A stretch of 64,000 nt of DNA from Octopus vulgaris (taxonomy: Eukaryota), in the NCBI GenBank assembly GCA_951406725.2, contig OX597821.1:44206001-44270000 (forward strand), read 5' to 3'. This document shows positions 38,797-50,689 of this stretch, in pieces. How positions within the stretch are numbered: the stretch's first letter is position 1; every line of letters starts with the position of its first letter. The translations under genes were made by a program, and so were the position numbers. Below the pieces are notes generated by a model, which had not been told where the DNA came from, did no database searches, and saw only the letters and a list, made by a program, of their open reading frames with translations.

Positions 38797-39292
38797 CAGT
38801 AGTCTTATTGTTATCACATGCTTTCACTGCACTACCAAGCGCAGCTCCATGCACCTTGGGTATGTGCTGTGAGTTGTTGTGGTGCTCTTATTTTCACTGT
38901 ATTGAAAGTGTTTTACGTAGGATGTGTGCAGTACCTAGTAGTGCTATTTTCTGTATGTTATATATACTTGTAAGTCTTGGTGTTTTTATTTGTCTGAATG
39001 TTTTTTTTTATTATACCTAATCGATTTTATCATACATCGATTAGAAAGCTTTTTTTTTTCCATGGTGATATCTGACAACTATACCCAGCCTATTTCTTTG
39101 ATTTCTCTATCTGTGTGTATTACCATATGCCAGAGTATGGTTGTTTTCTCATTTTCTGTGACCTTTTCTGGTGTGTGCCTATACCATCTTTATCTGTTGT
39201 TATTCCAAAGTGTTGGTATAGCTTCCAATGTATATAGATCCCAACTCTGTCATGTCTGTGTATATATTCCTTCTTAGCCATCTCCACTACAT
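38797..39292 (-). mobile_element. Decayed R4/Dong-clade 3' fragment (second subfamily) inside (TAA)n
   Basis: Minus peptides LAKKEYIHRHDRVGIYIHWKL, HTPEKVTENEKTTILW..HTDREIK and NIQKIALLGTAHILRKTLSIQ* align with the C-terminus of ORF 48441; (ATT)n on both sides. Confidence 0.9.
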
Positions 39293-39364
39293 ATCATTAT
39301 TATTATTATTATTATTATTATTATTATTATTATTATTATTATTATCATTATTATTATTAAGGCA

Positions 39365-40170
39365 GCATGCTTGGATAGGCAGTTCCTTGCTGACTGACAG
39401 TGTTGTGGGTGCTGGACAGAAGAACTGGTTAATTTGCTCGGTGTCTGGTTCAGTCCAGACCTCGAAGTGAACAAGAACTGGTGTGAGGTGACAGACAGGG
39501 TGGCCAGTCTCACCTAGAAATGGGCCAAGAAGAAGCTGTCTCTGAAAAGTGGTGAATGCATATATCACATCTGTCATATACTACCACCTGACTGTCATCC
39601 CTTGTCCCACTTCGTGGCTGAATAGGCTAGTACACTTGCTCTTTTGCATCCTGTGGAAGGGACAGGTACTGCTTGTCAGACAGTCCATTTGCTATCAGGC
39701 AATGACCAAGGCAGGGCACTTGGCACCTAGAGTGTCTCTAACCACTCACAACCCTCGGCCAGTCAGGCACCTTGGAGATCTATAGGGGATTAGTGGAGGG
39801 CAAGAGTGATGATGTTCTCGGAGAGGTTCTGGATGTTGGGAGGGATCAACTGACTGGTCTTTTCAAGAGGACTTTCAGGCCAGGGCCTATTGGTAACTTC
39901 CTGAAATCCCTCACCTGGCAGTTGCTGGGGGTTCTGCTGGTTTGTGATAAGCTCTTCAGGCATGGGTGTGTAGTCAGACAGGCTTGTCTGTGATGCAAAC
40001 AGAGTGATGAAACCATTCTGCATGCTCTTGTAGAGCTTAGTCAAACAGTAATTGTCACATGTAGGACAGATCTGGCTATTGTCTGAGTCCATCAAGAAGA
40101 TCACTCCCACCTTCTACCTTTGACAATGAAGGACAGGCAGCTTTTCACTGTCTCGTAGCTATGGCAAAAG
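39365..40170 (+). mobile_element. Decayed L1/Tx1-clade LINE, post-RT region and C-terminal zinc finger
   Basis: LLGVWFSPDLEVNKNWCEVTDRV..KLSLK, VNAYITSVIYYHLTVIPCP..LLFCILWKG, DKLFRHG..C..CKQSDETILHAL. Confidence 0.8.
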
Positions 40171-40440
40171 AGGTAAAATTTCCGCTTCTTTCTTATTTTT
40201 ATTTTCCTAAAATTTTCATTGCGTCTTTCAAACTATTGAAAAGGTTGCAAGATGCTACGAAAATTTTAGAAAAATGAAAATAAGGAAAAAGTGGAAATTT
40301 TACCGATGAGTGTGTTATATTATAAGGCACAAAAAGAAAATGACTCTCCCCAGACACAACAGAATATGCTTCAACACACGAACTCATATAAAGAATCTTG
40401 CAAACCAAATCCAAAAACGAAATATATATATATATATGAT

Positions 40441-40842
40441 AGGAGTGGCTGTGTGGTAAGTAGCTTGCTAACCAACCACATGGTTCCGGGTTCAGTCCCA
40501 CTGCGTGGCATCTTGGGCAAATGTCTTCTACTATAGCCTCGGGCTGACCAAAGCCTTGTGAGTGGATTTGGTAGACGGAAACTGAAAGAAGCCCGTCATA
40601 TATATGTATATATATATATACGTGTGCGTGTATGTTTGTGTGTGTGTTTGTCCCCCTAGCATTGCTTGACAACCGATGCTGGTGTGTCTACGTACCCATC
40701 ACTTAGCGGTTCGGCAAAAGGGACCGATGGAATAAGTACTGGGCTTACAAAGAATAAGTCCCGGGGTCGATTTGCTCGACTAAAGGCGGTGCTCCAGCAT
40801 GGCCGCAGTCAAATGACTGAAACAAGTAAAAGAGTAAAAGAG
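40441..40842 (+). mobile_element. Young full-length SINE family B
   Basis: A/B-box-like head tggctgtgtggtaag...ggttccgggttcagtcccactg; CpGs retained; tail gactgaaacaagtaaaagagtaaaagag. Confidence 0.93.
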
Positions 40843-48047: not shown

Positions 48048-48170
48048 TAATAATAATAATAATAATAATAATAATAATAATAATAATAATAATAATAATA
48101 ATTATTATTATTATTATTATTATTATTATTATTATTATTATTATTATTATCATTATTATTATTATTATTA
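48048..48170. repeat. Palindromic microsatellite (TAA)~18(ATT)~23
   Basis: Strand switch at ~48101. Confidence 0.95.
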
Positions 48171-48370
48171 TGGTTTCAAATTTTGGTACAGCAGTTTGTT
48201 GGGAGGGTAAGTGAATTACATCAACCTCAGTGCTCAAGTGTTACTTATTTTATCAACCCCAAAATGATGGAAGGCAAAGTTGACCTTGGCAGAATTTGAA
48301 CGTTAGGATGGGTAAAATGCCACTAAACATTTAGCCTGGCATGCTAACAATTTTGCCAGCTCACTGCCTT
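48171..48370 (-). mobile_element. SINE family A between two TAA/ATT tracts
   Basis: Reverse complement aaggcagtgagctggcaaaattgttagc...ccaaaatttgaaacca. Confidence 0.88.
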
Positions 48371-48422
48371 AATAATAATAATAATAATAATAATAATAAT
48401 AATAATAATAATAATAATAATA

Positions 48423-50689
48423 ATAACCTGCTTAACAACTATGTACAAAACACTAACATCTGTCCTGACGGAATATACCTATAGTTTTTTAACAGACAGC
48501 AGCATATTCCCTAATGAACAGAAAGGATGTAAACGTGGATCCTACGGCTGTAAAGACCAACTACTCATCAATAAGATGATCTTAGAAGATTGTCACAAAC
48601 GACACAAAAACTTATCAATAGCCTGGATAGACTATAAAAAGGCTTTTGATAGCCTACCACATAGCTGGATTAGGAAATGCCTTGAAATGTATAAGATAGC
48701 ACCAACTCTGCGAAACTTCTTGACTGTAAGTATGAGATCATGGAGAACCACACTAACTCTGAACAGTGACAGTGAATCCCTAAATGCTGGTGATGTAAAA
48801 ATTTCGTGTGGCATTTTCCAGGGTGACTCACTGTCACCACTCCTCTTTTGTTTATCCTTAATACCTCTCTCAAAGCTGCTCAATGACGCGCAGTACGGGT
48901 ATAAAATGTTTGATAAAAATATAAATCATCTCGTTTACATGGATGATTTAAAGCTTTTTGCAAAAAATGATCAACAACTCAAGGGCTTACTAGCGATAGT
49001 CAAACAATTCAGTGACGACATCAGAATGCAATTCGGCCTCGATAAATGTGCAAAGGCTACCTTTATCAAAGGAAAAATGACAGAAACATCTAACGTTAAC
49101 CTTCACCAACAGAATGTCATAAAAGAACTAGACCCAGCGGAGAGCTACAAGTACCTAGGGATAATTGAAGGGAACGGAATAAGGCATTCAGAGATGAAGG
49201 AAAGGATCAGGAGAGAATGCTATCGAAGAGTGAGAGCAATACTCAAGACAGAGCTGAATGCAAGAAACAGGATCGAAGCAATCAATGCATTAGCTATACC
49301 AGTCGTGACTTACAGTTTCAATATTGTTAACTGGTCAATTACTGAAATATGTCAGCTCGACAGAAAAATAAGGAAACTGTTGACAATGCATAGAATGCAC
49401 CACCCTAAGGCAGATACAGAACGACTATATCTGCCAAGAAAAGAGGGAGGCCGTGGTCTTTTGCAACTGGCAATAACAATGAAGATTGCTACAATTGGCC
49501 TAGACACCTACCTGAAAAACTCTGAGGACTGGATGCTAAAACTTGTCTCAAAACATGAAAACAAGAAAGCATCATACTCAGTCACAAAACAGGCAAAGGA
49601 ATATCTAAGTGAACTCCGAATACAACCAATTTCGGAATTAGAGATAGATATACAAGAAACAAGCACAGAAAAAGCTAGGCGCATGAAAACCCGTGCCAAA
49701 ACTGCGGCCTTAGATATTCTGAATAATAAATGGCAAGAAAAACCTCTCTATGGCAAATACCCAAAGAGAGCGAATAATGCAGATATCGACAAAGCCCTGA
49801 CCCATCAATGGCTAATGGCCTCTGGCTTAAAATCTGAAACAGAGGGGTTTATCATAGCAGCTCAAGATCAATGCCTACCAACAAGAAACTACCAGGCCAA
49901 CATATTAAAGATCAGAAGCAGTCCAACGTGTCGTGTATGCAAGCAACAAAATGAAACCATTGACCATGTGGTCTCCAAGTGCAGTCTTCTAGCGCCTACA
50001 GAGTATCTCAACAGGCACGATAGAGCTGCACAATATATTCACTGGGTAATCTGTAAAAACCTGGATTTGCCCCATGAAAAAAACTGGTGGGAACACAAAC
50101 CACCCCCAGTGCTTGAAAATGACCACATCTCACTCCTCTGGAACTTCACCATTCAAACTGACAGGAAGATAGATGCAAATAGGCCAGACATCATATTGAA
50201 AAACTTCAAACAAAGAACATGCCTCCTCATTGATATGACTGTCCCAATCGATATAAACGTATCTGTCAAGACCTACCAAAAACTGAGCAAATATAAAGAT
50301 CTTGAAATAGAAATCAGCAAAATGTGGAAGCTGAAGACTAAAACAATACCTGTTGTCATAGGTGCCCTGGGAATGATAGCAAAAGGGGCTGATAGCTACC
50401 TAACTCAGATACCAGGAAACCCAAAAATGGCAGAAGTTCAAAAGATAGTGCTCATGGGAACTGCTCATATCCTACGCAAAATACTCTCTATGTAATCTCA
50501 AGGTTTAAAACAAACATAATTTTCGGTTTAAAAAAAAAAAAAAAAAAAAAAAAAAAAACATCCCCACCCCCAAATATATGGCACACTAGGCATAACAACA
50601 ACATGAACTTCCAACCCTGTTGTCTCTTGAGGTCTCTGGGTGAGACTTGGAGCCAACTTGTACAAATATAAAGCAAAAGTCAAACATAG
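48423..50689 (+). mobile_element. R4/Dong-clade non-LTR retrotransposon, 5'-truncated, inserted in (TAA)n
   Basis: (AAT)n on both sides (48371-48425 and 50690-50750); intact ORF; ~190-nt 3' UTR with an internal A-run and a terminal stem-loop. Confidence 0.95.
48441..50495 (+). CDS. Reverse transcriptase + CCHC finger + restriction-like (PD-(D/E)xK) endonuclease, N-terminally truncated
   Basis: WIDYKKAFDS, GIFQGDSLSPLLF, YMDDLKLF, YKYLG, CRVCKQQNETIDHVVSKC, RHD, NRPDI, LIDMTVP, KLSKY, LMGTAHILRK; 684 codons with no stop. Confidence 0.96.
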   Translation: MYKTLTSVLTEYTYSFLTDSSIFPNEQKGCKRGSYGCKDQLLINKMILEDCHKRHKNLSIAWIDYKKAFDSLPHSWIRKCLEMYKIAPTLRNFLTVSMRSWRTTLTLNSDSESLNAGDVKISCGIFQGDSLSPLLFCLSLIPLSKLLNDAQYGYKMFDKNINHLVYMDDLKLFAKNDQQLKGLLAIVKQFSDDIRMQFGLDKCAKATFIKGKMTETSNVNLHQQNVIKELDPAESYKYLGIIEGNGIRHSEMKERIRRECYRRVRAILKTELNARNRIEAINALAIPVVTYSFNIVNWSITEICQLDRKIRKLLTMHRMHHPKADTERLYLPRKEGGRGLLQLAITMKIATIGLDTYLKNSEDWMLKLVSKHENKKASYSVTKQAKEYLSELRIQPISELEIDIQETSTEKARRMKTRAKTAALDILNNKWQEKPLYGKYPKRANNADIDKALTHQWLMASGLKSETEGFIIAAQDQCLPTRNYQANILKIRSSPTCRVCKQQNETIDHVVSKCSLLAPTEYLNRHDRAAQYIHWVICKNLDLPHEKNWWEHKPPPVLENDHISLLWNFTIQTDRKIDANRPDIILKNFKQRTCLLIDMTVPIDINVSVKTYQKLSKYKDLEIEISKMWKLKTKTIPVVIGALGMIAKGADSYLTQIPGNPKMAEVQKIVLMGTAHILRKILSM

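Follow-up and report, generated by a model that had tools for sequence, protein, structure and literature searches.

In a 64,000-nt stretch of Octopus vulgaris DNA (GenBank assembly GCA_951406725.2, contig OX597821.1, positions 44,206,001 to 44,270,000 of the forward strand; hereinafter designated the window, with positions counted from its first letter), three retrotransposon ends of R4/Dong-like families carry the same kind of bulged hairpin. They are hereinafter designated copy 1 (family S1), copy 2 (family S2) and copy 3 (family S3a). Our analysis strongly supports this hairpin as a conserved, covarying stem-loop of the 3′ untranslated region (UTR) that is common to divergent R4/Dong-like families. 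The hairpin is kept 34–75 nt before the TAA tail and is probably the RNA signal bound by the element's own protein when a template is chosen for target-primed reverse transcription (TPRT).

A covarying hairpin near the 3′ end

The survey combined about 11 families from the octopus's own genome with 86 loci from contigs of metagenomes and metagenome-assembled genomes, with the ends of the open reading frames (ORFs) set by protein homology. After two too-short rows were dropped, 90 ORF ends were scanned for the anchor bases alone, with no pairing term and a cut-off score of at least 15. This score is reached by 66 of the 90 ends, in which the four inner pairs are 90% complementary, compared with 9 of 90 reverse complements (22% paired) and 13 of 450 shuffles (35% paired).

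For the covariation tests, the 63 ends with a score of at least 15 and at least 100 aa of protein were reduced to 39 lineages with less than 80% protein identity. When columns were simulated on the protein tree (4000 simulations), the top five of 741 column pairs are the four inner pairs of the upper stem and one pair of the lower stem, with G values of 63–75 against null maxima of 28–36, an approximately twofold excess. All five have the lowest p value attainable (1/4001), and the corrected E of 0.19 is therefore set purely by how many simulations were run. Two further lower-stem pairs are weaker (p ~0.001), and two non-structural pairs also reach the p floor, barely above their own null maxima. 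A plain MAFFT alignment has 86% of its cells paired, compared with 24–44% when it is slid, and RNAalifold returns the same fold plus a sixth upper-stem pair (38/39). Folding energy, tried as a guide to strand, proved uninformative.

A model built from 27 sequences from outside the octopus genome ranks the three window copies first to third (E 4.9e-7 for copy 3, 4.8e-5 for copy 1 and 0.029 for copy 2, with the next match at 3.4) and also recovers other families of the own genome. Of 52 tailed outside ends, with training rows and near-duplicates counted in, 42 pass both the anchor and the model cut-offs. No relative was found in viral contigs, and GTDB contigs yielded six loci, among them a distant outgroup without the motif (L143 and L144). 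At the gathering score, Rfam gives no match in the window; the four full-length copies give chance microRNA and small-RNA matches only, with no family near the motif.

Covariation of this kind could in principle be an artefact of shared ancestry, of selection by the anchors or of neutral hairpin repair by DNA template switching. The anchors were defined after inspection, and those originally proposed from copy 2 are indeed chance private changes (see below). We nevertheless consider an artefact highly improbable: the inner columns were never constrained and the controls pair at only 22–35%, the tree-aware null is exceeded about twofold while the slid controls collapse, the held-out model recovers the window copies, and the unpaired bases are invariant amid flanks that cannot be aligned.

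The motif comprises ~30 nt, with a lower stem of at least three pairs closed by C-G, a YNA/C bulge opposite one base and a 6-bp upper stem that starts with G-Y and G-C and continues with four free pairs. The loop, mostly 5 nt, reads N(G)GNN with an invariant G as its third base. Among the 39 lineages the bulge A is kept in 37 and the loop G and base G in all 39, counts that are inflated as these positions belonged to the anchor score; an A.A next to the fixed G-C recurs in five. A pseudoknot between the loop GG and the flanking CC/YC shows no covariation among the 741 pairs, although these columns barely vary and invariant columns cannot show covariation.

In all 34 tailed representatives the hairpin lies 34–75 nt from the TAA tail (median 47.5, standard deviation (SD) 9), while the distance from ORF end to upper stem runs from 4 to 208 nt (SD 50) and the motif overlaps the stop codon in some. 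Given the two deviations, the position of the motif tracks the 3′ end and not the stop codon. The same measurements bear on a possible role in translation of the single ORF, whether in termination, readthrough or cis handover of the RNA to the new protein. Such a role would suit the lineages with a stop codon inside the lower stem or bulge (L110, L114, L116, L120, L124 and L129), but appears distinctly improbable when the spacing to the ORF end is so variable and the spacing to the tail so steady.

Two further arrangements were observed around the main hairpin. Roughly one-quarter to one-third of the 34 tailed lineages have another small hairpin, ACCAG(C)...(G)CTG(A/T)GA, between it and the tail (CCAGC in 8, CTGAG in 9 and ACCAG in 10, exceeding 500 shuffles); carriers include L079, L094, L103, L105, L112, L116, L120, L124, L129 and L074, and the window families S1, S2 and S3a are without it. 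Family S10 has two tandem copies of the main hairpin at a spacing of 42 nt, and the first of them overlaps with the stop codon (L183:1555–1635, L191:1452–1532 and L201:1555–1635).

Candidate role in template recognition

Recognition by the reverse transcriptase (RT) is the best reading of the motif's position, of the analogy with other retrotransposons and of a conserved helix predicted to bind RNA. A shape that a protein binds at initiation would be expected to combine freely varying stems with fixed unpaired bases and to keep its place relative to the 3′ end, as this motif does; the contacts are likely the shape itself, the bulge A, the closing G-C and the loop G, with the stem sequence left free. 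The counterpart of R2 NTE-1, a basic helix that immediately precedes the RT domain, would read the fixed G-C at the base of the upper stem together with the bulged A. This grip on the hairpin would place the UAA-repeat 3′ end of the RNA against the nicked TTA strand of the (TAA)n target, and the RT would then copy through the hairpin.

In Bombyx R2, Arg307, Arg310, Arg311 and Tyr314 of NTE-1 are reported to contact a 3′ UTR stem, and a 43-nt tag is reported to suffice for TPRT (PMC10499050). In a phmmer alignment, R424, K427, R428 and F431 of the S1 protein align with R307, R310, R311 and Y314 of R2Bm, and among 29 relatives they are kept in 29, 28, 28 (plus one K) and 27 proteins, respectively.

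Very short S1 copies point in the same direction. Among the matches listed (100 of 219), 10 of 36 independent places, counted by hand with clusters merged, start at the helix base, 7–12 nt before GAGG, and no more than one of 36 starts 0–6 nt before GAGG, inside the 5′ arm; this pile-up at the helix base is suggestive of recognition, and only that. Hairpin-less S1 stubs occupy 17 independent places, a figure obtained at a pattern stringency different from that of the hairpin-bearing search and thus not for quantitative comparison; such stubs are expected where truncation occurs during cDNA synthesis. Separately, short S1 copies on contigs C1, C2 and C5–C8 share identical 5′ junctions at the hairpin base, with a tandem run of at least eight at C8:3.807 Mb. 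These identical junctions may mark either a truncation hot spot or stubs that were mobilised again.

Several points weigh against a role in recognition. The NTE-1 match falls at the margin of the phmmer alignment, the 29 proteins comprise close relatives only (47–55%), and a conserved NTE-1-like helix need not bind the hairpin. A motif common to coexisting families would be a poor tag of self and non-self unless the stems or loops add specificity. Ten of the 52 tailed outside elements fail a cut-off, L133 and L135 having nothing like the motif and the other eight being variant or decayed by eye. Abundant families carry one mismatch in the upper stem (A.C in S2, A.A in S3a), so perfect pairing is not needed. 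The strand evidence is weak, with 28 G-U against 8 A-C cells and equal fold z-scores on both strands. Finally, the anchors were picked after the data had been inspected, and the 39 rows were preselected by anchor score.

The hairpin might instead act before reverse transcription, in 3′-end formation, in cleavage or termination of read-through transcripts, in exonuclease protection or in binding a host factor. Its constant distance from the 3′ end is compatible with such a role, unpaired bases fixed across families down to ~30% protein identity would suit an unchanging host partner, and the elements lack a poly(A) tail and lie within TAA arrays, so that some process presumably has to make their 3′ end. 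We still judge this unlikely, considering that no Rfam family lies near the motif in the window or the four full-length copies, that ribozymes are usually larger than ~30 nt with a single bulge, and that the L2 and R2 3′ structures reported as tested are bound by the element's own protein.

Recognition by the element protein would have parallels in two other retrotransposon groups. The tail stem-loops of L2-clade long interspersed nuclear elements (LINEs; eel UnaL2, zebrafish ZfL2-1 and ZfL2-2) are described as bound by the element protein and needed for retrotransposition, with the region before the RT binding a bulged stem with a G-containing pentaloop (PMC1636434, PMC4176376). As in the L2 tails described there, the R4/Dong-like motif is a small two-part stem near the 3′ end, with a hinge or bulge between the stems and a G-containing pentaloop, followed by a short-repeat tail. 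The two nevertheless belong to different clades, with a restriction-like endonuclease (REL) in R4/Dong-like elements and an apurinic/apyrimidinic endonuclease (APE) in L2, and the R4/Dong-like motif is set apart by its N(G)GNN loop, its YNA bulge opposite one base, a tail 34–75 nt away and a function that is predicted here.

R2, in turn, shares the protein superfamily and the NTE-1 arginine helix, which aligns and is conserved, and in both groups a stem base has a G-C pair with an unpaired A nearby, a resemblance only. The 3′ motifs described for R2 are multi-stem or pseudoknotted and vary between R2 lineages (Bombyx P1-J1/2-P2, PMC10499050; vertebrate pseudoknot-hinge-stem, PMC12180492), whereas the R4/Dong-like motif is one compact, nested, bulged hairpin kept to ~30% protein identity, with neither a P1-J1/2(AA)-P2 junction nor a pseudoknot-hinge-stem. 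By analogy, the hairpin likely works like a stringent LINE tail, and in structure it is neither of the two R2 motifs, the tag and the vertebrate pseudoknot.

No head of a short interspersed nuclear element (SINE) that could mark a partner sharing the hairpin was found in 21 contexts examined, drawn from 113 own-genome model-match loci chosen around R4 matches; these contexts comprise R4 ends that are truncated, short stubs and a pair of weak matches without R4 context. Partner SINEs of Entamoeba R4 are listed in PMC3747384, the relevant portion of which shows no R4 structure, and PMC13580325 describes the Fell survey with no mention of such a motif. A full-text literature search, conducted mostly at title and abstract level and outside the founding R4/Dong/Rex6 papers, supplements and Repbase/Dfam notes, returned no prior description of an R4/Dong 3′ hairpin.

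Three element ends in the window

48427–50689, + strand: copy 1 (family S1), a young, 5′-truncated R4/Dong-like element with a frame open to the stop at 50493–50495 (RT, CCHC zinc knuckle, REL endonuclease), then 3′ UTR
48370–48426, + strand: 5′-junction target array of copy 1, (TAA)n
50690–50749, + strand: 3′-junction array of copy 1, (TAA)n tail or target
50620–50658, + strand: hairpin motif of copy 1 (held-out model E 4.8e-5)
50624–50627/50649–50652, + strand: lower stem of copy 1, with bulge TGA (50628–50630) opposite T 50648
50631–50636/50642–50647, + strand: upper stem of copy 1, with loop TGGGT (50637–50641)
38797–39291, − strand: copy 2 (family S2), an old, 5′-truncated and frameshifted element end with 3′ UTR, between TAA arrays at 39292–39359 and 38698–38796
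38827–38866, − strand: hairpin motif of copy 2, atypical for S2 (held-out model E 0.029)
38862–38859/38836–38833, − strand: lower stem of copy 2
38855–38850/38843–38838, − strand: upper stem of copy 2, with a 6-nt loop (38849–38844)
36409–36626, − strand: copy 3 (family S3a), the final ~7 codons and 3′ UTR, between TAA arrays at 36626–36760 and 36380–36408
36450–36488, − strand: hairpin motif of copy 3, the top match in the window (held-out model E 4.9e-7)

In copies 1 and 2, the hairpin lies inside the 3′ UTR of 5′-truncated RT/REL elements with (TAA)n on either side. Copy 2 is 88–92% identical to its closest sisters, and its protein is 45% identical to that of copy 1 over 88 aa. The hairpin of copy 3 has a long lower stem, a CTA bulge, an AGGAA loop and an upper stem with the one A.A mismatch typical of S3a.

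An earlier note on this DNA had proposed, from copies 1 and 2, a stem-loop shared by divergent R4/Dong subfamilies. The strings it compared occur exactly at 50630–50650 (+) and 38856–38835 (−), and the motif does end 39 nt (copy 1) and 38 nt (copy 2) before the TAA tails. The shared stem-loop itself is borne out as covarying and far more widespread than proposed, and the covariation expected in further subfamilies is present across the 39 lineages; the lower stem, the bulge and the third copy (36488–36450) had been overlooked. The kept anchors that the note named, AGGT, TGG and CTTGG, do not hold up, being private changes in the decayed copy 2, and its argument from compensation between gca/tgc and ctc/gag rests on this atypical, mutated copy. 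The true conserved anchors are shorter, namely C..AGG, the loop G and CYCG, and are joined by a second, lower stem.

The private nature of these changes emerges from the 2.8-Gb genome. S2 has 8,960 genome matches and a predominant form, AGG-CACA-CAGAGC-TGCG-CTCGG, with an A.C mismatch in the upper stem; among 100 matches listed of the 8,960, counted by eye, 99 begin with GGCAC and none has a TGG loop or CTTGG. The AGGT/TGG/CTTGG form of copy 2 has a single genome match, the window copy itself. Because this form is unique genome-wide and absent from the S2 matches listed, its likeness to copy 1 reflects private changes. S2 copies with a YGG loop occupy 34 places, against 8,960 family matches, and 3 of the 34 have a TGG loop. 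Descent of copy 2 from an older CG/CG master whose stem paired perfectly was considered and ruled out, as the pattern, Y-G at each site, is matched by the window copy only and YGG loops are so few. By folding alone the hairpins of copies 1 and 2 are unremarkable (z −1.5 and −1.6), and the two-copy comparison is weak by itself.

For the other two families, the flanks of copy 1 give 4,595 S1 matches (about three-quarters identical among 100 matches listed, counted by eye) and S3a has 3,379. Over the last 121 aa, at least 150 S1 places show 100% identity, and there are full-length copies of 1270 aa.

Other features of the window concern the surroundings of these copies. A non-R4 repeat common to 50750–50920 (+) and 38697–38540 (−) comes after the TAA tails of copies 1 and 2. 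Its appearance is that of an oppositely oriented SINE whose (TTA)n tail was used as target, and it may resemble octopus SINEs. Near-identical decayed pieces of an R4-like RT region at 36335–36185 (−) and 34931–34787 (−) appear to be a local duplication. At 50530–50558, copy 1 is without the T-run and the next ~20 nt that follow an A-run in sister S1 copies, in which the A-run and T-run could pair as a hairpin.

R4/Dong-like identity and meaning of the hairpin

S1 encodes a single 1270-aa ORF with Pfam RVT_1 and zf-RVT and no APE match; its protein aligns with R2 proteins through the RPD..D..K region, and R2 proteins head its PDB matches. TAA arrays flank each of the three window copies and the four full-length copies. 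Dong elements of insects, molluscs and cnidarians are described as single-ORF elements (RT, CCHC, REL) that target (TAA)n (PMC7998251). On domain order and TAA target, the elements may be classed as R4/Dong-like, a comparison of features that stands apart from the named Dong, Rex6 and R4 sequences. Named homologues are few, being uncharacterised shrimp, killifish and coral proteins. The N-terminal domain expected in the R4/Dong clade is a divergent Myb/SANT-like one that lacks zinc fingers; in the S1 N-terminus, Pfam reports neither Myb nor zinc finger. The only R4/Dong RNA structure described in PMC3774820, as far as that source could be consulted, is a 5′ ribozyme like that of hepatitis delta virus; no Rfam ribozyme matches the four full-length copies at E ≤ 1, although divergent forms could escape.

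Full-length S1 copies (L220–L223) have a long 5′ UTR of ~900 nt before the ORF, which begins right after the TAA array and holds a degenerate GAT/AAT microsatellite, and L221 has short tandem duplications at its 5′ junction. R4-like families are often nested in one another's TAA tails, giving chains of element ends (L001–L060, L147–L223).

The principle of a 3′ recognition signal is not new and is known from other retrotransposon groups. Maps of how non-LTR retrotransposons choose their template exist for L2, R2 and some other groups, and we found none for R4/Dong, a REL clade that targets microsatellites. The hairpin provides a candidate of ~30 nt whose putative contact bases can be named, together with ready compensatory mutants and young intact ORFs of 1270 aa, and the model is a sensitive marker of R4 3′ ends, down to stubs of ~200 bp. 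Should the hairpin work as a portable tag, RNA-templated insertion at TAA repeats would gain a handle both smaller and better conserved than the 3′ UTRs of R2. We suggest, tentatively, that one such ~30-nt tag may serve lineages down to ~30% protein identity and be read by an invariant arginine helix. In that case, any RNA with the tag, ~45 nt and UAA repeats would insert at (TAA)n, coexisting families would mobilise each other, and TAA-flanked stubs that begin at the hairpin base would be minimal SINE-like parasites, or would mark the point at which the RT lets go after unwinding its own grip.

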